Below, piece by piece: positions 1 through 44,980 of a stretch of 64,000 bases of DNA (its first letter is position 1; the number at the start of each line of letters is the position of its first letter). Origin of the DNA: Pseudomonadales bacterium (lineage in GTDB: Bacteria > Pseudomonadota > Gammaproteobacteria > Pseudomonadales > IMCC2047); NCBI GenBank assembly GCA_965230515.1, contig OZ246007.1, positions 23,196-87,195 on the forward strand. Reading direction: 5' to 3'. The notes below the pieces were generated by a model, which had not been told where the DNA came from, did no database searches, and worked only from the letters and a program-made list of their open reading frames with translations. A program made the translations under genes and the position numbers.

Positions 1-738
1 GGGTGCAGTTGCGACATTGTCGTAGTCCATCGGCGTCATAATGACGATCACGGATTTTGGCTCAAAAGGGAAGTCTTTGTCCCAGTACAGCTCCCGTTCA
101 TGGATGATGTCGTACATGGGGTCGTAAACAAACCGCTTGTCAAAGCGGGTGATGCCGCAGCGTACAGCGCCAAACAGTTTTGCAGCACTTCGAATCATGG
201 TGGCGGCGCGCTTGGGGGAACCGAAGTCATATTGTTCGGCCTCTACATCGGATTGGTCCCAACTATGCAGCGGAGTGTTGGGCTGGGTGAACGCCTGTGG
301 CCTTGATTTCGCGGCAATTAGCGGAAACCATGCGGCATGGCCCAAAGCACGATCCGCCTGGTCGTAGCCTTCCCGTGTATTATCCGGCGGGAGCTTGTGT
401 TCAAAAGTTTGAATGTCGTAATTGAAATTAAACGTTTTATTGTGCAAACGGGCATACTGTATATTTCTTTCCGGATAGACCTCCTGGGACAATTTGGGGC
501 TGACCGCATAGCACAGCACAACGTCGCGCTGGTCCTTTGGCTTGAAGGTTTCATCAGTTTCAATGCCCTCGGATGGCGAACCGTCCAAAGAAGCTTTGGA
601 CGCTGCCAGCGTTGCTCCGCCGGCAGCCATTACACCTGCTCCGGCCAAAGCCGCTCGTTTAAAGAAGCTTCTGCGGGAGATGTTGGGTAGATCATCCAGG
701 GGCTTAACGGGAATTTGATTGTTATCCTGGTCGCTCAT
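1..738 (-). CDS. rdhA: Reductive dehalogenase catalytic subunit (RdhA-like), Tat-exported; N-terminal 246 aa only, runs off the window
   Basis: Hand translation from ATG at 738 is open to base 1: MSDQDNNQIPVKPLDDLPNISRRSFFKRAALAGAGVMAAGG... It has a twin-arginine signal, then EGYDQADRALGHAAW, IRSAAKLFGAVRCGITRFDKRFVY and FPFEPKSVIVIMTPMDY, which resemble RdhA conserved blocks. RBS GAGAGGAAG. The Fe-S motifs would lie outside the window. Confidence 0.82.
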   Translation of the reverse strand, partial: MSDQDNNQIPVKPLDDLPNISRRSFFKRAALAGAGVMAAGGATLAASKASLDGSPSEGIETDETFKPKDQRDVVLCYAVSPKLSQEVYPERNIQYARLHNKTFNFNYDIQTFEHKLPPDNTREGYDQADRALGHAAWFPLIAAKSRPQAFTQPNTPLHSWDQSDVEAEQYDFGSPKRAATMIRSAAKLFGAVRCGITRFDKRFVYDPMYDIIHERELYWDKDFPFEPKSVIVIMTPMDYDNVATAP

Positions 739-819
739 GGTGAATTCTTCCTCTCAATAATGACAACTTGTTATTCAATACCGGCTTGTGATGTGGTACC
801 GGTCTGATCCGGTGTTGGT

Positions 820-1428
820 TTAACAGATTTCAAGTAGCTCAATTTCAAAAACCAGTGCCGCATTCCCCGGTATATTGGGCGGACGACCCAGTTCGCCATA
901 GGCTAGGTTTGCAGGTATAAAAAACCGGCATTTGGTGCCAACAGGCATCAGCTGTAGGCCCTCGGTCCAGCCTGCAATAACTGACTGTAAAGGAAACTCT
1001 ACAGGGGCACCCCGTTCTACAGAGCTGTCAAATACATCACCGTTGGTCAGCGTTCCGTGATAATGAACGAGGACACTATCCAGGGGGTGGGGTTTGGCGC
1101 CGGTTCCCTGTTCCAGAATTTCATATTGCAGACCACTGGCTGTGACATGGATATCATCTCGTTGCGCATTCTGTCTCATAAAATCAGTACTTTGGTTGGC
1201 TGCAGTTTTCGCTTCCGCCTGTCTTTTTTGTTCAAGCTTTGCGGTAATGGCCTTAAAAGCGTTTTCTGCGTCTTCATCGGAGAAGGGGCTCTGATTGCCC
1301 AGGTAACAGTCTCGAAGCCCTTCATGCACGGCCTCAAGGTTGAGACCTTCGAAATCATGGGTTAGCAGGTGGCGGCCAAATTGCCAGCCAAGGCCGTAGC
1401 TAACCGTTCGTTCATCACTATTTGTCAT
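820..1428 (-). CDS. FKBP-type peptidyl-prolyl isomerase (FklB/Mip-like, dimerisation + FKBP domains)
   Basis: SYGLG N-terminal domain, SGLQYEIL, VHYHGTL..G.VFDSS.ERG.P, VIAGWTEGLQLM, IP.NAALVFEIELL. Confidence 0.95.
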   Translation of the reverse strand: MTNSDERTVSYGLGWQFGRHLLTHDFEGLNLEAVHEGLRDCYLGNQSPFSDEDAENAFKAITAKLEQKRQAEAKTAANQSTDFMRQNAQRDDIHVTASGLQYEILEQGTGAKPHPLDSVLVHYHGTLTNGDVFDSSVERGAPVEFPLQSVIAGWTEGLQLMPVGTKCRFFIPANLAYGELGRPPNIPGNAALVFEIELLEIC

Positions 1429-1431
1429 GGG

Positions 1432-1989
1432 TCACCTCGCTACCTGATTGATCGGATGGCTGATTGGCGGAACGATAGGGCCTTTGGGTGGCAGTGGCAG
1501 CAGCAATGGCGGCTCCATATATGCCTTATGGCAGGCATTGCATGTCTTGATGACTGCGCCTATGCCATTGGTGGCACCCTTGTCGTCATGCATGCGGGAG
1601 TGTTGGGCGAGGCCCATTGCTGCCGTCTCAGTGGCCAGTGACTTGGCCTTGAAATCGTTGATGTTATCCAGAATGGAGGGCCTGGCCTTCGTACCTTCAA
1701 AGGAGCCCGGAATGATAAAAAACTCATAGGACATTTTGGCCAGATACTCGAGCGCATCGGTGCGATCATTCATGCGCAGGCCGTTCCATTTTTTTTGTCC
1801 TGAAGCAAGCCTTATGGCGTCTATCAGCTGTGCTGCCATCAGCCGATGAATGCCAATTCTGGCTTCGATGGCCGGTTTTGCTTGAGTATAGGGGTCTGGC
1901 ATTTTCTGTAGTGGATTTTCCGCTGCTGCTGCGAAACTGCATAACCCGCTCATGACCAGCGGTAGTATGAGGTGAGTAAGCCTGGACAT
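1432..1989 (-). CDS. Class II (four-helix, c'/c556-like) periplasmic cytochrome c with Pro-rich tail
   Basis: Sec-type signal peptide; single C-terminal CNACH; TKARPSI resembles the T.A.P.IW motif of cytochrome c'. Confidence 0.85.
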   Translation of the reverse strand: MSRLTHLILPLVMSGLCSFAAAAENPLQKMPDPYTQAKPAIEARIGIHRLMAAQLIDAIRLASGQKKWNGLRMNDRTDALEYLAKMSYEFFIIPGSFEGTKARPSILDNINDFKAKSLATETAAMGLAQHSRMHDDKGATNGIGAVIKTCNACHKAYMEPPLLLPLPPKGPIVPPISHPINQVAR

Positions 1990-2097
1990 ATCTATTACCC
2001 TTGAGTTCGTTGCAGGGAGGCCTTTTTCCGTATTGCGCCTTCCTGTATTTGTTATCGGTTGGCAAGCTTCTTGATCGCTTGGTTGCTTAAAAACAGG

Positions 2098-2112
2098 TCA
2101 AGTTTTATGCCA
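2098..2112 (-). promoter_or_regulatory. Sigma54 -24/-12 promoter for the cytochrome-FKBP-rdhA operon
   Basis: Minus strand TGGCAT-AAAAC-TTGA vs consensus TGGCAC-N5-TTGC; ~110 bp upstream of the cytochrome start, next to a sigma54 activator gene. Confidence 0.7.
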
Positions 2113-2141
2113 TAAAATAAGCAGGATGATGTGGAAAACGC

Positions 2142-2154
2142 TAACCGATTGAAA
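2142..2154 (-). promoter_or_regulatory. Putative IHF site between enhancer and sigma54 promoter
   Basis: TTTCAATCGGTTA, one mismatch to WATCAANNNNTTR, AT-rich flank, typical position. Confidence 0.45.
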
Positions 2155-2225
2155 ACAAATATAATTTAAGTGTATAAGGGTGGGCTGTTGAGAGTGTTTT
2201 GGATAACCAGGGTTTATCAGTAATG

Positions 2226-2258
2226 CACGAAATATAGTGATAATCCCTAAATAACGTG
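2226..2258. promoter_or_regulatory. Putative tandem upstream activator sequences for the sigma54 activator
   Basis: CACGAAATATAGTG (2226-2239) and CCCTAAATAACGTG (2245-2258): related imperfect palindromes 115-145 bp upstream of the -24 box. Confidence 0.5.
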
Positions 2259-2280
2259 AATTCCAGGGCGTGTTCTAATG

Positions 2281-3735
2281 TTAGGGATTATGGTTATGCC
2301 GAGAGATCCCCAGTTTTTTCATGCGTGATTCAAGAGTGGTGGGTTTCAATCCTAGCAATCGGGCGGCACCTTTTGGGCCGCTTACCCGCCAGGAGGTTTG
2401 TTCCAGGGCTTTCAGTATGTGCTGTGACTCTGAGTCCGCTAGCGTCAAAATACCGGAATTTCCTTCGTCTGACTGCTGTTGAATAAACCATTCCCCGAGT
2501 TCAAGTTTATCGTTACTGCTGATGATAAGCGCGCGTTCGATGATGTTTTCAAGCTCTCTGACATTACCTGGCCAGTGATAGCTAACAAGGGCGTCAAAAG
2601 ATTTTTGAGGAATGGTCGCTACCCGTTTTCCCAATCGGGCACCAAGCTTGTCGACAAAATGCTGTACAAGTAAGGGGATATCTTCGCGTCTGTCTCGCAG
2701 TGCCGGTGAATAGATAGGAAACACGTTCAGGCGGTAGTAAAGATCTTCCCGGAATTTGCCCTCTCTAATCAGCTCCTTAAGATCATGGTTGGTGGCTGCG
2801 AGTACGCGCACATTCACCTTTAAGGTTTCGGAGCTTCCCACACGTTCTAACTCTCCCTCCTGCAGTACTCGAAGTAGCTTTGCCTGGAGGTCGAGAGGCA
2901 GGTCACCTATTTCATCGAGAAACAGGGTGCCCTGGTGGGCCAGCTCAAATCGTCCGGTTTTGCGAGCCATAGCTCCAGTAAAAGCACCTTTTTCATGGCC
3001 AAACAGTTCGCTTTCGATCAAATTGGATGGAAGCGCAGCACAGTTTACTTTGACCAAAGGTTTATCCGAACGCTGACTATGGCTATGAATGGCGCGGGCA
3101 ACCAGCTCTTTTCCTGTCCCCGTTTCTCCCAGTATCAGCACTGTGGTATCGGTATTGGCGACCTGTTCGATCTGTTGCAACATATATTTGAAAGGTCGGC
3201 TGGTGCCCACCATTCCACTGTTGCCCTGTTCAACCCGGATCTCTTCCTTTAGATAATGATTTTCCTTTTCCAGTTTTTCCTTTAATTCATTAAGTTCACC
3301 CAGTGCGGTTTGCAGGGCATGCTGGGTTTCTTTAATTTCCGTAATATCCCGAGCCTCAGGAACCAGAAACTGTACTTTTTGGTTCTCGTTTAACAAGGGA
3401 TTGAGCGAAAAGTCAAAAGATCGACGCTTCCCGTGGGTATCGGTGTGCTCGGTTTCAAACCGCACAAATACGCCGGTGTTTGCTTTTTCGATCGCTTTAA
3501 TTATCTGTTCCTGAATCGTTGTAGAGTGGTTCCACCATGGTGTGTCCCAAAAGAACTTGCCTAGCACCTCTTCTTCAGAAACGCCGATCATTTCCAGTGC
3601 AGTTTCATTAACCATTAACAAACGGCCATCGGTATCCAGTAGCCCGGTAAGCTGAAAGTGGTGATTGAATATCGCATTCAGTAAATCAGGGTTATTCGGA
3701 TCGATCTGGGTAAGAGATTTATTGGTTTTGGTCAT
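2281..3735 (-). CDS. PAS-domain sigma54-dependent transcriptional activator (FhlA-like AAA+ and HTH)
   Basis: N-terminal PAS ([10 protein letters not shown]), [41 protein letters not shown]-terminal HTH. Confidence 0.95.
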
Positions 3736-3972: not shown

Positions 3973-4818
3973 TCAATTCCGTTCCCCAAAAGCCTGCGAG
4001 TGATGCGCGATATGCTCACCTATAAAGCTGGCAATAAAAAAATAACTGTGGTCATAGCCGGACTGAATTCTCAGTTCGAATGGATGATTCGCTTCGCGAC
4101 AGGCATCTGCCAGTCGTTCCGGCTTTAACTGTTCATCCAGAAACCCGTCCTGGTCGCCCTGGTCGATCAGAATAGGCAGGCGTTCTTTGGCGGATTTGAT
4201 CAGCGCGCAACTGTCGTATTGAGCCCATTGCTGCCGGTCGTTGCCAAGATAATGGCTGAGCGCTTTTTCACCCCAGGGGCAGTTCATCGGAGAGCAGATC
4301 GGCGCAAAGGCTGATACAGCTTTATAGCGTCCGGGATTTTTAAGTGCCATGGTGATGGCACCGTGGCCACCCATCGAGTGGCCCATCATCGATTGCCGGG
4401 ATGCATCCAGCGGGAGCTGCTTGAATATCAGCTCGGGAAGTTCCTCGCAGATATAGTCGTACATCTGATAGTTTTTTCGCCAGGGTTCCTGTGTCGCGTT
4501 AACATAGAATCCTGCTCCTATGCCAAAATCCCATTCATCATCGGGATCATCCGGAATGGCTTCTCCTCTGGGGCTGGTGTCTGCGGCGATCATGGCCACG
4601 CCGTGCTCACTGGCGTAGCGCTGCGCGCCCGCTTTTTGTACGAAGTTCTCGTCGGAGCAGGTCAGCCCCGAGAGCCAGAATATTGCCGGTACCGGTTTCT
4701 GCTCCGCGAGAGGTGGTAGATAAACGGAAAAATTCATCTCGCAGTTCAGACTGCCGGAGTGGTGCTGGTAGCGTTGCTGATGGCCGCCAAAGCATCGAAT
4801 GTCGCTGATCTTTTGCAT
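3973..4818 (-). CDS. fghA: S-formylglutathione hydrolase
   Basis: WLSGLTC, GHSMGGHGA, GYDHSYFFIASFI; adjacent to frmA. Confidence 0.96.
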   Translation of the reverse strand: MQKISDIRCFGGHQQRYQHHSGSLNCEMNFSVYLPPLAEQKPVPAIFWLSGLTCSDENFVQKAGAQRYASEHGVAMIAADTSPRGEAIPDDPDDEWDFGIGAGFYVNATQEPWRKNYQMYDYICEELPELIFKQLPLDASRQSMMGHSMGGHGAITMALKNPGRYKAVSAFAPICSPMNCPWGEKALSHYLGNDRQQWAQYDSCALIKSAKERLPILIDQGDQDGFLDEQLKPERLADACREANHPFELRIQSGYDHSYFFIASFIGEHIAHHSQAFGERN

Positions 4819-4830
4819 CTTTTTCGGATC

Positions 4831-5937
4831 CTAGTAAAGCACAACTGAACGAATGCTTTTGCCTGCATGCATCAGCTCGAATGCCGTATTAATCTCTTCC
4901 AGTGGCATGGTATGGGTAATCAGGTCGTCAATATTAATTTTATTATCCATATACCAGTCGACGATCTTTGGAACGTCGGTTCGGCCACGCGCACCACCAA
5001 ATGCTGTGCCGCGCCAGACTCTGCCGGTTACCAGTTGAAATGGGCGCGTGGAGATCTCCTGTCCGGCACCAGCGACGCCGATAATATAGGATTCCCCCCA
5101 GCCCTTGTGGCAGCACTCCAATGCCTGCCGCATGGTGTTGACGTTGCCGATGCATTCAAAGCTGTAATCCGCACCGCCGCCGGTCAGTTCGACGATCGAA
5201 GACACAATATCTTCCACCTCTTTAGGGTTGATGAAATCGGTCATACCAAACTGTCGAGCCAGTGGAACTTTGGATTCGTTCAGGTCAATACCCACGATTT
5301 TATTGGCGCCGGCCAGTCTTGCGCCCTGAATGACATTGAGTCCGATTCCGCCGAGACCAAAGACGACCACATTTGATCCTGGCTCTACTTTGGCATCAAA
5401 TACTACCGCACCCACTCCGGTTGTGACGCCGCAGCCAATGTAGCAGACTTTGTCGAATGGCGCGTCCTGGCGGATTTTTGCTAATGCTATCTCGGGTAAT
5501 ACGGTGTAGTTGGAAAAGGTGGAGCAACCCATGTAGTGCAAAATAGGTTTTCCATCCAACGAATATCGACTGGAGCCATCAGGCATCAGCCCGGCACCCT
5601 GAGTTTCGCGAATGGCCTGGCACAGATTGGTTTTCGGGTGAAGGCAGAAATCACACTCCCGACACTCCGGTGTATAAAGGGGAATCACGTGGTCGCCTGG
5701 CTTGAGTGAGGTCACGCCTGGGCCTACTTCCTGCACGATTCCGGCACCCTCATGGCCCAATATTGCCGGAAAGGCACCCTCCGGATCATCGCCCGAAAGG
5801 GTAAAAGCATCAGTGTGACAGACCCCTGTTGCCTTAATTTCGACCAATACTTCACCGGCTTTGGGGCCTTCGAGATCCACTTCTACAATTTCTAAAGGTT
5901 TGCCCGCCTCAAAGGCAACGGCTGCTCTTGTTTTCAT
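4831..5937 (-). CDS. frmA: S-(hydroxymethyl)glutathione dehydrogenase / class III alcohol dehydrogenase
   Basis: [49 protein letters not shown]. Confidence 0.97.
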
Positions 5938-6080
5938 GGTTATGCTCCAGTGTGTTGTTGGTTAATCGCTAGCCTATGTTTGGAAGGTGATGCCTGTTAA
6001 ATACTACATTGTTTTTTCTTGAGTTATAAACAGTATAAATGCAACATATTGTTCTTTTTGTGCAACAAAGGGTTTGGTCG

Positions 6081-6950
6081 ATGAGTAAATGGGATCAGTA
6101 TGAAGCCTTCGTTAAAGTGGTCGAACATAAGGGATTCTCTGCCGCCGCGGACAAAATGGAGGTGTCCAAGTCCTATATCAGCCGCCAGATATCAGGCCTT
6201 GAAAACCGGCTTGGCGCGCAACTGCTCAACCGCACTACACGTAAGGTAACACTGACGGAGCTTGGTGGCAGTTTTTACAGCCATTGTAAAGATCTGCTCG
6301 GAAATCTGGAATTTGCCGAACAGGCAGTGATGGACATGCAGGCACGTCCCATCGGGACGTTGCGCATCACCGCTGTTGGCGTTTTTGCGGAGGATTATGT
6401 GGTTCCGGTAGCAATCGAGTATATGAAAGCATATCCGGATATTCGAGTGGATATAGATTTTTCTGACCGGGCTATCGATCTTGTTGCCGAGGGCTTTGAT
6501 CTGGCAATCCGTTCGGGTGTGCTGCCTGATTCCAGTCTGAAAGCGCGTAAAATAGTGCCTCGAAATCTAAAAATCTGTGCCAGTCCGCATTACCTTTCCG
6601 AGCACGGTATACCCGGACGAATATCTGATCTTCATCAGCATAACTGCCTGGTGGGTTCAAATACCACCTGGCGAATAAAAGATGACGAACATCATTATGA
6701 CTTTAAGGTTGAGGGTAGCTGGCGCTCCAATAACGGAAGGGCTCTGAAACGCGCGGCATTGAGTGGATTGGGAATCGTCCAATTGCCGGAGCTTTACTTA
6801 AGAGATGATATAGAAGCAGGACGTTTACGTTCTATTTTGGATAAATATAATCCTGTAGACCCAATGTATTGGGCGGTTTACCCTTATAATCGTCACCTGG
6901 CAACCAAAGTCAGGTTGTTTATCGATCTGCTGGTGAATCGTCTGACCTAG
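6081..6950 (+). CDS. LysR-family regulator, divergent from frmA
   Basis: FSAAA..S.ISRQISGLENRLGAQLLNRTTRKV HTH; CrgA-like effector domain; start placed at ATG 6081. Confidence 0.93.
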   Translation: MSKWDQYEAFVKVVEHKGFSAAADKMEVSKSYISRQISGLENRLGAQLLNRTTRKVTLTELGGSFYSHCKDLLGNLEFAEQAVMDMQARPIGTLRITAVGVFAEDYVVPVAIEYMKAYPDIRVDIDFSDRAIDLVAEGFDLAIRSGVLPDSSLKARKIVPRNLKICASPHYLSEHGIPGRISDLHQHNCLVGSNTTWRIKDDEHHYDFKVEGSWRSNNGRALKRAALSGLGIVQLPELYLRDDIEAGRLRSILDKYNPVDPMYWAVYPYNRHLATKVRLFIDLLVNRLT

Positions 6951-7022: not shown

Positions 7023-7080
7023 ACTGTTTAAAAATTGCTGCCAATATTGAATAGTGCGCGGGTTTTGGCTGTGTTCAAAT
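7023..7080 (+). promoter_or_regulatory. Operator/promoter copy 1 of a motif shared across the catabolic cluster
   Basis: ACTGTttaaAAATTGCTGCCAATATTGAATAGTGC, then a 17-bp spacer and TCAAAT; matches the copies at 9434 and 14723. Confidence 0.6.
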
Positions 7081-7085
7081 GCGCA

Positions 7086-7169
7086 CCAGATTTAAAGTCT
7101 TCCTCCTGTTGTGCCTGGCACAACAATAAGCGCCGATATGGCCAGGCCCTTTTGAAGGGCCTTTTTTTT
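7086..7169 (+). ncRNA. Candidate small RNA (or terminated leader)
   Basis: Promoter motif directly upstream; CU-rich UCUUCCUCC tract; inverted repeat at 7107-7125; intrinsic terminator at 7144-7169; no credible ORF. Confidence 0.5.
7144..7169 (+). terminator. Rho-independent terminator
   Basis: AGGCCCTT-ttg-AAGGGCCT followed by a T run. Confidence 0.85.
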
Positions 7170-7297
7170 ATTCTTTAATTGCCATTAAGATTGCCTAAAC
7201 AGAATATTTTCTACCTTAACTGAATATCTACGGTCGGCGCCCCGCTTATATACTCTTTTAACAGCTTTCATGGCGGTTGAATATATAGGGAGGGACC

Positions 7298-7807
7298 ATG
7301 AAACGACGTTTTTTTGTTACCAATCTGAGCCGATTGAGTGTTGCAATAACTATTGCACCATGGCGTGTCTTGGCAAATTCGCCCAGTGTTAATGGGTCAA
7401 ATTCTAATTCCGCATCGCTGCAAGTCAGAGCCATGTTCGCGGAATTGGCCTACCTGCTGTTGCCGTTACAACCGGCTGACTCTGAAATCTACCAAATTGT
7501 GGCTGAGCATCTGATGCGGCAGATGGTTGCCCGGCCTGCTACTCATAAGTTACTTAGTAATGGTCTTGATCAGTTAAACCAAAGTGCTGAGCGTGGTTGG
7601 TTATCGGTATCTCGTGCTGAACGAAAAGTCGTGATGGTTAGGTTTATAGAGTTGCCTTATATCGCAATCGTGCGCTGGGTGACGCATGAACAGGTGCTGC
7701 GCAATCGGCACGTTTGGGCGCAAGTGGGGTATCAGGGCTCGGCTATTGAGAAGGGTGGTTATTTAAAGCGCGGATTTAATGATATTGATTGGCTGCCGGT
7801 GCGTTGA
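7298..7807 (+). CDS. Tat-signal small subunit of a GMC dehydrogenase (gluconate 2-dehydrogenase subunit 3-like)
   Basis: MKRRFF signal; C-terminal VW..VGYQGSAIEKGGYL.RGFNDIDWLP; directly upstream of the GMC gene. Confidence 0.8.
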   Translation: MKRRFFVTNLSRLSVAITIAPWRVLANSPSVNGSNSNSASLQVRAMFAELAYLLLPLQPADSEIYQIVAEHLMRQMVARPATHKLLSNGLDQLNQSAERGWLSVSRAERKVVMVRFIELPYIAIVRWVTHEQVLRNRHVWAQVGYQGSAIEKGGYLKRGFNDIDWLPVR

Positions 7808-7814
7808 GAGGTGA

Positions 7815-9377
7815 ATGGTAATGACGAAATTTGATCGGGATGATGACTCTGTCGTAGTAGTGATAGGTTCCGGGGCGGGAGGAGGAACCCTGTCCAATGA
7901 ATTAGCCCAGCGAGGCATCAAGGTTGTATGCCTGGAGGCGGGCAAGCGGCTCAAAGCGAGCGAAATTATTAATGATGAAGCGGTGATGTATGAGAGGTTG
8001 ACCTGGTTTGATAGACGCAAGGGTACAGGGGATGCGTCCGCCCAGTTTCCGGTCTGGACCTGTAAAACAGTCGGTGGAACAACCATGCACTGGACGGCAT
8101 CCTGCCCCCGTATGCAGGAGCATGAATTCCGTGCCCGGTCTACCTATGGCGAAATCGGAAATACCAATCTGGTTGATTGGCCGTTGAGTTACGATGAACT
8201 GGCACCCTATTACAGTCAGGCCGAGAACAGGTTGGGGGTAACCGGTACGCATGGGATTGAGCGTCTGCCGGGCAATAACAACTACAAAGTACTCGAAGCC
8301 GGAGCACGGGCCTTGGGCTACCGGCAGATTGATACCAATAATGTTGCTATCAATTCCCAGACACGGGATGGCAGACCGTCCTGTATGCAGCTCGGGTTTT
8401 GCACCAGTGGTTGTGTTGTTCGGGCAAAATGGTCAACGCTTTACACTGAGATTGAAGCGGCTGAAAAAACAGGCCATTTTGAACTGAGACCGGAATCCAT
8501 GGCGGTGCGTATAAACCATACCCCGGAAGGTCGCGTCAACAGTGTCCAGTATCGGGATGCATCAGGCCAGATGCAGACTCAAAAGGCGCGGCTGGTATGC
8601 GTGGCAGGAAATGCAGTGGAGACAGTACGTTTGCTGCTAAACTCCCGTTCTTCAATGTTTCCTGAAGGTTTGGCAAACTCAAGTGACCAGGTTGGCAGGA
8701 ATTACATGCGCCATTTTACGTTGCCTGTTATAGGCATTATGCCGGGCCCGGTCAATATGCACCGGGGCACGCATCAGGCGGGGATTGTAAAAGACGAGAG
8801 ACACCATGATTCTGATCGAGGTTTCAGTGGAGGGTTCTTGTTCCTGACAGTACCCTTTACACCTGAGATCGTCGGAAAAATCATCCTTCGTGATAAGTGG
8901 GGCGACGAGCTGGCCGGTATACTGAATCGTTATGATCATATGGCGGCTATGCTCGTGCATGGCGAGGATATGCCGCAATCCACCAACCGCATTACCTTGC
9001 ATGCTTCAGAAAAAGATGAAAATGGACTGCCGGTCCCCGTTATTCACTATAGGGATCACCCTAATACCAAAAAAATGAAGCATTATGCAAAGGAAAGGGG
9101 GGTTGCCATCTACCGGGCGTTGGGTGCCCGGGAAATATTTTCACCCGATGATGTGTTTCCGGCAACGCACAACATGGGCGTTGCCCGGATTGGCTTGGAT
9201 CCGCGAGAGTCGGTTTGTAATGCCTGGGGCCAGACCCATGATATTTCCAACCTGTTTGTATCTGATGGTAGCCTTTTGCCGACTGTTGGCTGTGAAAACC
9301 CGACCTTGACCATTGTCGCGCTGATTTTGCGCCAGGCTGATTATATTGAACAGCAGATGTTAAAGGGCGTACTATAA
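7815..9377 (+). CDS. GMC-family FAD oxidoreductase
   Basis: VIGSGAGGG FAD motif, KTVGGTTMHW, C.QLGFC..GC, HNMG, NLFVSDGS, ENPTLTI. Confidence 0.93.
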   Translation: MVMTKFDRDDDSVVVVIGSGAGGGTLSNELAQRGIKVVCLEAGKRLKASEIINDEAVMYERLTWFDRRKGTGDASAQFPVWTCKTVGGTTMHWTASCPRMQEHEFRARSTYGEIGNTNLVDWPLSYDELAPYYSQAENRLGVTGTHGIERLPGNNNYKVLEAGARALGYRQIDTNNVAINSQTRDGRPSCMQLGFCTSGCVVRAKWSTLYTEIEAAEKTGHFELRPESMAVRINHTPEGRVNSVQYRDASGQMQTQKARLVCVAGNAVETVRLLLNSRSSMFPEGLANSSDQVGRNYMRHFTLPVIGIMPGPVNMHRGTHQAGIVKDERHHDSDRGFSGGFLFLTVPFTPEIVGKIILRDKWGDELAGILNRYDHMAAMLVHGEDMPQSTNRITLHASEKDENGLPVPVIHYRDHPNTKKMKHYAKERGVAIYRALGAREIFSPDDVFPATHNMGVARIGLDPRESVCNAWGQTHDISNLFVSDGSLLPTVGCENPTLTIVALILRQADYIEQQMLKGVL

Positions 9378-43273: not shown

Positions 43274-44980
43274 ATGGATATTCAAACACTTACTTTTATT
43301 CTTATCGGCCTCAGCTTTGCGCTCTATATTGGCATTGCAATCTGGGCGCGTGCCGGGTCGACTAAAGAATTTTACGTGGCGGGCGGGGGAGTCCACCCGG
43401 TCGCTAACGGGATGGCGACTGCAGCGGACTGGATGTCAGCAGCTTCTTTTATCTCTATGGCCGGGCTTATCTCCTTTATGGGCTATGACGGGGCGGTTTA
43501 TCTGATGGGCTGGACAGGCGGCTACGTACTGCTGGCTTTATGTCTGGCACCTTACCTGCGTAAGTTTGGTAAATTTACGGTGCCGGATTTCGTGGGCGAC
43601 CGATATTATTCACAAACTGCCAGAACAGTTGCTGTGGTGTGCGCAATTTTTGTGTCATTCACCTATGTGGCAGGCCAGATGCGCGGCGTGGGCGTGGTGT
43701 TCTCCCGTTTCCTGGAGGTGGATATCACCATGGGCGTGATCATTGGTATGGCGATTGTGTTCTTTTACGCTGTGCTGGGAGGCATGAAAGGCATCACCTA
43801 TACTCAGGTTGCACAGTACTGTGTATTGATTTGTGCCTATCTGGTACCGGCGATCTTTATCTCTATCATGATGACCGGAAATGCGATTCCACAGCTGGGA
43901 TTTGGCAGTACCATGGCCGACGGGTCAGGTGTTCATTTGCTGGATAAGCTGGATGGCTTATCACAGGAGCTCGGCTTTACGGCCTATACATCGGGGACAA
44001 AGAGTACTATTGATGTGTTCTTTATTACTGCAGCCCTGATGGTTGGCACAGCAGGTTTGCCGCACGTAATTGTGCGTTTCTTCACTGTACCCAAAGTACG
44101 TGATGCCCGTAAGTCTGCGGGTTGGGCGCTACTGTTTATTGCTCTGCTTTATACCACTGCGCCTGCTGTTGCCACCTTTGCGCGTGTGAATATGATCAAC
44201 ACCATTAACGGTGAGGATATGCAGGGCACTTCCTATGAGACAGCCCCGAGCTGGATTAAAAACTGGGAACGAACCGGTTTGATCACGTGGGAAGATAAAA
44301 ACGATGACGGTAAGATGTTTTACGCCGCTGATGAACGTAATGAGATGAAGATTGACCGCGATATTATGGTGTTGGCCAATCCGGAAATTGCCAAGTTACC
44401 CAACTGGGTGATCGCGCTGGTGGCTGCAGGCGGTATTGCCGCGGCGTTGTCTACTTCCGCCGGATTGTTGCTGGTGATATCGACCTCCATTTCGCATGAT
44501 CTGCTTAAACGAAATCTGATGCCTCGAATAACCGATCGGCAGGAGCTGCTGTTTGCCCGTATAGCTGCTGCCGTTGGCATCTCGGTTGCGGGCTATCTCG
44601 GTATTCATCCACCAGGATTTGTGGCGCAGGTGGTCGCCTTCGCGTTCGGACTGGCTGCTTCCTCTTTCTTCCCGGCTATTATTCTGGGTATATTCTACAA
44701 GCGCATGAATAAAGAAGGAGCAATCAGTGGTATGTTAAGCGGTATCCTGTTTACTGCGGCCTATATCGTTTACTTTAAATTCATCAATCCTGCGGCGAAC
44801 ACTCCGGAAAACTGGCTGTTTGGAATATCGCCGGAAGGTATTGGTACCCTCGGTATGCTGTTGAACTTTGGTGTGGCGCTACTGGTCAACAAACTGACCA
44901 ACGATGCTCCAGCAGAGGTTCAGGAAATGGTTGAGGGTATTCGTTATCCTAAAGGAGCTGGAGTTGCACAGGCGCATTAA
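43274..44980 (+). CDS. Sodium:solute symporter (ActP-like acetate/monocarboxylate permease)
   Basis: [32 protein letters not shown]...RFFT. Confidence 0.93.

Follow-up and report, generated by a model that had tools for sequence, protein, structure and literature searches.

Among described reductive dehalogenase (rdh) systems, the closest to the locus reported here are the PceA-PceB systems of Desulfitobacterium and Dehalobacter, the PceA of Sulfurospirillum and the rdh clusters of marine Desulfoluna. PceT, found with the first of these, is a trigger-factor-like protein with an FKBP-type peptidyl-prolyl isomerase (PPIase) domain that binds the twin-arginine translocation (Tat) signal peptide. 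Its family, RdhT, is among the few characterised rdh products, according to the available part of PMC5928378; the same text defines RdhC by several transmembrane segments, the flavin mononucleotide (FMN) motif [S/T]G[A/S]TX[S/T] and two CX3CP motifs. In Desulfoluna, a gene for a sigma54-dependent regulator has already been reported beside rdhA-rdhB-rdhC (PMC7031245, available part). How electrons get from the quinol pool, at about -75 mV, to the cobamide of RdhA, at about -360 mV, is described as unresolved in the accessible text of both sources (PMC7031245, PMC5928378). Here we describe an rdh cluster at the left edge of a 64,000-nucleotide stretch from a Pseudomonadales bacterium (the window; G000:C1:23196-87195, where G000 is the source genome, one contig of 3.58 Mb). 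In this cluster, genes for a class II cytochrome c and an FKBP directly precede rdhA, an arrangement that recurs in the nearest relatives of the dehalogenase.

The genes of the cluster lie on the minus strand in the order PAS-sigma54 activator, c'-fold cytochrome c, FKBP, rdhA, rdhB and rdhC, followed by IS21 and IS481 elements. In the direction of transcription, the intergenic gaps are 291 nucleotides (nt) between activator and cytochrome, 3 nt between cytochrome and FKBP, 81 nt between FKBP and rdhA, 10 nt between rdhA and rdhB, and 13 nt between rdhB and rdhC. The initial annotation had pointed to an unlisted 246-codon frame at 738->1 with a Tat motif, co-oriented and closely packed with the FKBP, cytochrome and activator genes, and both observations hold. 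The frame begins with ATG and encodes 246 amino acids (aa) with no stop codon up to the left edge of the window; being open at its 3' end and running past that edge, it is missed by an ordinary listing of open reading frames (ORFs). The genes central to the analysis are as follows.

1..738, minus strand: rdhA, the first 246 of 489 codons; the remainder lies left of the window, and the whole gene spans L002 12738..11269, equal to G000:C1:22464-23933.
820..1428, minus strand: FKBP of the cytoplasmic Mip/FkpA/FklB type, 202 aa, the rdh-linked paralogue (PF00254 2e-29, PF01346 2.2e-21).
1432..1989, minus strand: class II (c'-fold) cytochrome c, predicted to be periplasmic, 185 aa, with a signal peptide (PF01322 58.7 bits against a cut-off of 26.5).

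In profile searches, no dehalogenase model matched the 246-aa fragment on its own. Recovery of the full gene from the genome made the RdhA-like blocks in the fragment testable. The complete 489-aa protein scores 187.6 bits against TIGR02486, above the cut-off of 160.35, and has Fer4_7 and Fer4_16 domain matches. Its best PDB match is the PceA chain of an RdhA-RdhB complex (8q4h_A, 1.3e-54), and PceA 4uqu is matched at 1.5e-39. Two Fe-S motifs, C343-x2-C346-x2-C349-x3-C353-P354 and C396...C407-x2-C410-x3-C414, are invariant in 20/20 aligned sequences. The same is true of Y258 and R317, which the PDB-match alignment pairs with PceA Tyr246 and Arg305, residues to which Bommer et al. are said to have assigned a catalytic role in 2014. 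The Tat signal reads SRRSFFK at residues 21-27, with R22, R23, F26 and K27 nearly invariant across the 20 sequences.

The two genes downstream of rdhA encode its partners. rdhB specifies a 96-aa hydrophobic protein in which three hydrophobic stretches are visible, and its profile has PceB (8q4h_C) as best PDB match, with a weak score of 7e-4. The 462-aa product of rdhC contains FMN_bind and Fer4_5 domains, the FMN motif SGATVS and two CX3CP motifs, CGYLCP and CRLFCP. By its sequence it fits the RdhC definition given in the accessible part of PMC5928378. Thus the initial annotation's reading of the frame as a respiratory-type rdhA stands: besides the Tat motif that it had noted, the full gene has the CX2CX2CX3CP motif with a second Cys cluster, and rdhB then rdhC follow downstream, as it had expected. 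Of the two dehalogenase models that it had proposed for comparison, TIGR02486 gives a score above its cut-off and PF13486 one below. On these sequence features, the full ORF is established as a respiratory-type rdhA, whose product would be a Tat-exported reductive dehalogenase, RdhA.

The PF13486 result bears on what the enzyme reduces. This Pfam model of the N-terminal dehalogenase region gives 18.7 bits on the full protein, under its cut-off of 24.3, which weighs against assignment as a dehalogenase. A precomputed PF13486 match exists for only 3 of 120 listed RdhA homologues, so the model fits the whole subclade poorly. An RdhA homologue acting naturally on a non-organohalide substrate, with the cytochrome and FKBP serving that reaction, would account for the low score. 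It would also suit a superfamily that includes the non-dehalogenase QueG, to which RdhA has weak matches, and a subclade for which no member with a tested substrate appears in the searchable literature. We consider this very improbable given that TIGR02486 is above cut-off, that identity to PceA spans the catalytic core and takes in the Tyr and Arg paired with its Tyr246/Arg305, and that the partner genes rdhB and rdhC are present.

A second RdhA-family gene lies outside the window at G000:C1:603159-605336 (L096 259-2436). Its 725-aa product scores 172.5 bits against TIGR02486 (cut-off 160.35) and has no obvious twin-arginine motif at its N-terminus. Because two same-genus genomes contain ORFs of similar length (~730-790 aa), this homologue looks like a core gene, possibly of a cytoplasmic or catabolic type.

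The gene order around rdhA was surveyed in 80 RdhA loci from a scan of species-representative genomes, whose ORFs were compared with six window proteins (phmmer, E<=1e-5). In all 11 loci with an RdhA 66-88% identical to that of the window, the cytochrome and FKBP genes are directly upstream of rdhA and rdhB is downstream. The cytochrome-FKBP-rdhA-rdhB unit was found in none of the 69 loci with an RdhA at most 59% identical. The 11 comprise three Photobacterium loci, two of Psychromonas, four of Shewanella and one in a Thalassotalea metagenome-assembled genome (MAG); the last is a short contig binned as Desulfatibia. Two further cassettes were recovered, one a second copy in a Photobacterium genome (L119) and the other on a metagenome contig (L110). 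That the cytochrome and FKBP genes belong with rdhA, as the initial annotation supposed, is borne out by this synteny in the nearest genome loci and in L110 and L119. As judged from gene order and RdhA identity, one RdhA subclade has inherited cytochrome-FKBP-rdhA-rdhB as a unit across several marine gammaproteobacterial genera.

The position of rdhC relative to this unit is variable: the gene follows the unit in the window and in L003 and L109, and lies upstream in L004, L006, L007 and L013. In L109 (2181-5027), a metagenomic relative 88% identical, the RdhC-like ORF is 948 aa long, about twice the usual length, and may be fused to a further domain. L003, a 4.8-kb contig carrying cytochrome-FKBP-rdhA-rdhB-rdhC with an RdhA of 88% identity, is the one filed under a Desulfatibia (Thermodesulfobacteriota) MAG, which could reflect either a binning error or cross-phylum transfer.

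The searchable literature, a scope outside which supplements and the Shewanella sediminis rdh study fall, contains no report of rdh clusters that include a gene for a cytochrome c' or for an FKBP/peptidyl-prolyl protein. Within that scope, the initial annotation was right not to recognise the combination as characterised, and the cytochrome-FKBP-rdhA pairing seems not to have been described previously.

The FKBP of the cassette matched only FKBP_N and FKBP_C in the profile search; the trigger-factor domain architecture that is the hallmark of RdhT/PceT was not among its matches. Its best NCBIfam matches are of the FklB/FkpA type and its closest PDB entries are 7dek (164.9 bits), FkpA 1q6h (121 bits) and Mip 1fd9. 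No signal peptide is found in its sequence. The source genome encodes a single other FKBP_N protein, of 246 aa and an exported type. Three rdh-bearing genomes, of Psychromonas, Shewanella and Photobacterium, each have an rdh-linked FKBP (53-57% identical to that of the window) together with separate FklB-like (46-48%) and FkpA-like copies. The best FKBP identity across 20 relatives is 49%. An IQ-TREE phylogeny was built from 31 rows, comprising the full-ORF linked copies, the best FKBP match of each other fetched locus and the FkpA-type protein of the source genome, and leaving out the L109 fragment (52 aa). All 14 rdh-linked FKBPs form one clade in this tree (support 99/99, branch length 0.46), apart from the housekeeping FklB/FkpA proteins. 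The separate clade and the identity of at most 49% to the relatives' copies rule out that the island FKBP is the host's housekeeping fklB.

The rdh-linked FKBP therefore looks, from its phylogeny and linkage, like a dedicated accessory factor. By analogy with PceT, a role as an RdhT-like cytoplasmic chaperone for pre-RdhA is slightly favoured; the FKBP may work like RdhT while standing outside the RdhT family.

The cytochrome is a member of the class II (c'-fold) cytochrome c family on its PF01322 match. Its AlphaFold2 model is a four-helix bundle with a predicted local distance difference test (pLDDT) of 81.3, and superposes on the Shewanella and Alcaligenes cytochromes c' with a template modelling (TM) score of 0.90 and a root-mean-square deviation of 1.2-1.6. 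The sequence contains His48, Met51, the heme-binding motif C150-x-x-C153-H154, Met158 and an LLPLPP tail. In a profile alignment, His48 falls opposite Phe16 of 4cx9 and Leu16 of the Alcaligenes protein (5agf), and Met158 opposite Arg124 (Alcaligenes) or Lys (Shewanella). PDB titles name Leu16 and Arg124 as residues studied for gas binding. His48, Met51, CxxCH and Met158 are invariant in 12/12 operon-linked cytochromes, and a tail of the form L[LI]LP[LI]P is present in 11/12. A second set from a protein collection, whose search reached 9 close homologues of 60-94% identity and has no bearing on wider exclusivity, keeps every one of these features, tail included, in 10/10. With the window cytochrome as query, no other PF01322-like protein was detectable in the source genome.

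Thus the hydrophobic distal residue (Leu/Phe16) of the five-coordinate, gas-binding c' type is absent, and an invariant His48 stands in its place. We infer from the alignment that a distal His48 would give a six-coordinate heme of lower potential, suited to electron transfer; bis-His hemes have low potentials. Because an invariant His replaces the distal Leu/Phe16 and because the LLPLPP tail is conserved, we take the cytochrome to be a six-coordinate electron carrier. A literature search for bis-His class II cytochromes turned up only de novo designs and unrelated papers.

That the cytochrome is the electron donor to RdhA falls just short of an even chance. Several points weigh against it. Ligation of the heme by His48 is read from alignment only. 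RdhC alone could be the point of electron entry, leaving the cytochrome another role; conversely, rdhC is not within 10 kb in the full-flank loci L008, L010 and L012. A predicted complex of RdhA (residues 50-489), RdhB and heme with the cytochrome (residues 25-185) as partner scored 0.02 against a mark of 0.32; made without controls, it weighs neither way.

The other role might be that of a gas-binding, protective c' type, which would scavenge or sense periplasmic NO, CO or O2 and so shield the reduced cobamide and Fe-S clusters of RdhA. Such a function makes some sense, as corrinoids are inactivated by NO and N2O, and the cytochrome is a PF01322 member with the c' fold and a TM score of 0.90 to NO-binding cytochromes c'. 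However, both positions studied in the Alcaligenes protein for their effect on gas binding have changed, the distal Leu16/Phe16 to an invariant His and the proximal Arg124/Lys to an invariant Met. In favour again, the four Shewanella loci (L009-L012) have a gene for a ScdA_N/hemerythrin protein (YtfE-like iron-centre repair) behind the TetR gene at ~7050-7810, but neither the window nor the Photobacterium, Psychromonas and Thalassotalea loci have one. We therefore regard a gas-binding function as unlikely.

In the host genome, RpoN, TatC, CcmE and ApbE are all present. CobS and CbiC were not found in the source genome (98.9% complete), and its sole cobalamin riboswitch precedes a BtuB-type receptor gene; RdhA would consequently depend on imported cobamide. 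The cobamide cofactor and dehalogenating activity of RdhA are predicted indirectly, from the alignment of Y258/R317 and the riboswitch-linked BtuB.

Upstream of the cytochrome gene lie the elements that bear on the sigma54 control named in the initial annotation.

2098..2112, minus strand: candidate sigma54-type -24/-12 element, TGGCATAAAACTTGA, 123 nt before the cytochrome ATG.
2240..2291, strand not applicable: perfect 11-bp inverted repeat, ATAATCCCTAA-N30-TTAGGGATTAT, overlapping the activator stop codon.
2281..3735, minus strand: predicted bacterial enhancer-binding protein (EBP), with PAS at residues 28-133, an AAA+ sigma54-interaction domain with GAFTGA at 176-341 and HTH_8 at 431-475.

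The activator is a bacterial EBP by its family hits, namely PF00158 (Sigma54_activat, 8.1e-76), HTH_8 (1.9e-07) and PAS, and the GAFTGA motif is intact in the translation. The window motif TGGCATAAAACTTGA reads TGGCAT-N5-TTGA. Upstream DNA is available for one other non-TetR locus, L110, which is also the closest relative with such DNA; there TGGCATGCCCTTTGC, reading TGGCAT-N5-TTGC, lies ~56 nt before the cytochrome gene. The two motifs occupy the same relative place in promoter regions that are otherwise unalignable, and the genomic background of the strict -24/-12 pattern is 0.011 per 330 nt per strand. The strict motif precedes the cytochrome gene in none of 10 TetR-type loci, and a loose form is found directly upstream of rdhA for 1 of 79 rdhA genes. 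In each of the ten relatives whose upstream DNA is available, the cytochrome gene is preceded by a divergently oriented ORF 185-196 aa long, with TetR_N found in each of the three tested; L119 shows the start of the same divergent TetR-type gene. Within the window, a candidate site for the activator is the inverted repeat at 2240..2291, a pair unique in the 3.58-Mb genome that precedes the -24 element by ~130-180 nt.

Whether the neighbouring activator controls the operon through sigma54 is evenly balanced on this evidence. Several observations tell against such control. The -12 element of the window carries GA (TTGA) and not GC (TTGC), and the loose -24/-12 pattern is not enriched in the window, with 2 found against 1.07 expected. 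The available flanks of the ten TetR-type loci contain no EBP, and the five best activator homologues in relatives lack rdh, cytochrome or FKBP neighbours. The upstream gene of L110 encodes a HAD-family hydrolase, so adjacency of the activator is unique to the window genome. The initial annotation's claim is only partly supported: a promoter-like motif is seen in the window and independently in L110, but the activator is beside no related cluster, and ten relatives have a divergent TetR gene instead.

These same facts would follow if the activator were merely a neighbour left by a mosaic history of the island, with the operon under another promoter or regulator and the -24/-12-like motif there by chance. 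No relative has the activator beside the cluster, the TTGA element and the loose-pattern count are as such chance would have them, and a sigma70-like site lies at 2260..2231. On the other hand, sigma70-like sites fall below the number expected from shuffled sequence (1 against 4.3), and L110 has a near-consensus motif of its own at the corresponding place in otherwise unalignable DNA, with the strict pattern's background at 0.011. The activator also lies inside the genome-specific segment described below, directly upstream and co-oriented, and the unique, perfect inverted repeat is at a typical enhancer distance. We hold this account to be doubtful. Terminator scans gave no more sites than shuffled sequence. 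A second sigma54-type motif, TGGCATCTCGGTTGC, was found by pattern search at window 44575-44589 (+).

The activator has no orthologue in 40 relatives, which rules it out as a core gene of the genus. Its best match, on a contig of 2 kb, is 54% identical across residues 124-483; those in four other families are 43-47% identical. The RdhA query likewise found an orthologue in 0/40 relatives; two same-genus genomes and the source genome itself give only a weak match (E around 1e-15), to a different ORF of ~730-790 aa. Both genes belong to a genome-specific segment of ~12 kb around the rdh cluster. The alaS-ask flank is kept in relatives G001 and G002 (87-94% and 75-85% aa identity), as is the LysR-frmA-fghA flank (63-97% identity), and the segment between or next to these conserved flanks differs in both genomes. 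Left of rdhC are IS21 istA/istB, a 92-aa PEP-CTERM fragment and an IS481 transposase (L002 4512-9033), then aspartate kinase and alaS. This mobile-element debris marks the left border of the island. The rdh cluster is thus proposed to be part of a horizontally acquired organohalide-reduction island, of which the window edge holds the promoter-proximal part.

On the other side of the cluster, window 3973-6950 encodes an S-formylglutathione hydrolase (TIGR02821, 424.9 bits), a class III alcohol dehydrogenase / S-(hydroxymethyl)glutathione dehydrogenase (TIGR02818, 645.1 bits) and a divergent LysR regulator. Other genomes of the genus have kept this formaldehyde-detoxification unit, which marks the right island border. 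Further on, at 7298-9377, comes an ORF of 169 aa that matches no family and has a twin-arginine-like N-terminus, KRRFF; the next gene encodes a protein of 520 aa whose weak matches are of the GMC-oxidoreductase type. The pair may form a Tat-exported two-subunit dehydrogenase.

We propose the following mechanism for the cluster, in which the identities of the genes and the conserved cassette themselves have good support. The FKBP would hold or fold pre-RdhA in the cytoplasm during insertion of imported cobamide and two Fe-S clusters, an RdhT/PceT-like role taken by a different protein family. RdhA would then be exported via Tat and anchored by RdhB. Electrons would pass from quinol to RdhA through RdhC (with FMN), the dedicated periplasmic cytochrome or both, and the distal His48 would make the cytochrome six-coordinate and low-potential, not a gas-binding c' type. 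Transcription in the window lineage would start from a sigma54 promoter, with the adjacent PAS activator as its probable driver, and sister lineages would use the divergent TetR repressor instead. Taken as a whole, an acquired organohalide-reduction island working in this way is the probable explanation of the locus.

A bolder proposal is that a c'-fold cytochrome has been converted by its distal His into a low-potential, six-coordinate donor of a respiratory RdhA in facultative marine Gammaproteobacteria, with an FKBP22-type chaperone replacing RdhT. We offer this tentatively and think it less probable than its alternatives taken together. If true, the organohalide-respiration chain would have a third design, one that depends on a cytochrome and travels as a mobile four-gene cassette open to different regulators, TetR or sigma54. 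The conserved, operon-encoded periplasmic cytochrome is in any case a concrete, purifiable candidate for the quinol-to-RdhA gap. Active RdhA is hard to produce heterologously, and the FKBP is a candidate helper for such production. The cassette further shows organohalide reduction passing from one marine gammaproteobacterial genus to another in the form of a small unit whose regulators can be exchanged; this bears on natural halogen cycling.

Compared with known systems, the locus most resembles PceA-PceB(-PceC, PceT) of Desulfitobacterium/Dehalobacter (8q4h) and Sulfurospirillum PceA (4uqu). It shares with them a Tat-exported RdhA predicted to carry cobamide and two [4Fe-4S] clusters, a small membrane anchor RdhB (best PDB match 8q4h_C) and an RdhC with the FMN motif and two CX3CP. 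Unlike those systems, it has no trigger-factor-like RdhT and instead has a Mip/FklB-type FKBP in the operon, which opens with a gene for a class II cytochrome c, and the host is a gammaproteobacterium in which CobS and CbiC were not found.

The rdh clusters of Desulfoluna, also a marine bacterium, are similar in that a sigma54-dependent activator adjoins rdhA-rdhB-rdhC (PMC7031245, accessible part). No cytochrome c' or FKBP gene is mentioned for them in that portion of the source, in contrast to the window, where the sigma54 link is in turn confined to one sublineage and sister loci have TetR.

The cytochrome shares a four-helix bundle, a C-terminal CxxCH and PF01322 with the cytochromes c' of Shewanella (4cx9, 6a3k, 6a3l) and Alcaligenes xylosoxidans (1e83 among others), at a TM score of 0.90. 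It differs from them in the invariant His in place of distal Phe/Leu16, the invariant Met in place of proximal Lys/Arg124, an extra conserved Pro-rich tail of ~10-28 residues and the operon linkage of its gene to rdhA. Finally, the FKBP has the FKBP_N and FKBP_C architecture of the dimeric PPIase-chaperones FkpA, Mip and FklB (FKBP22). Unlike FkpA and Mip it lacks a signal peptide, and unlike all three it belongs to a separate long-branch clade that, in the data examined, occurs only beside this RdhA subclade.

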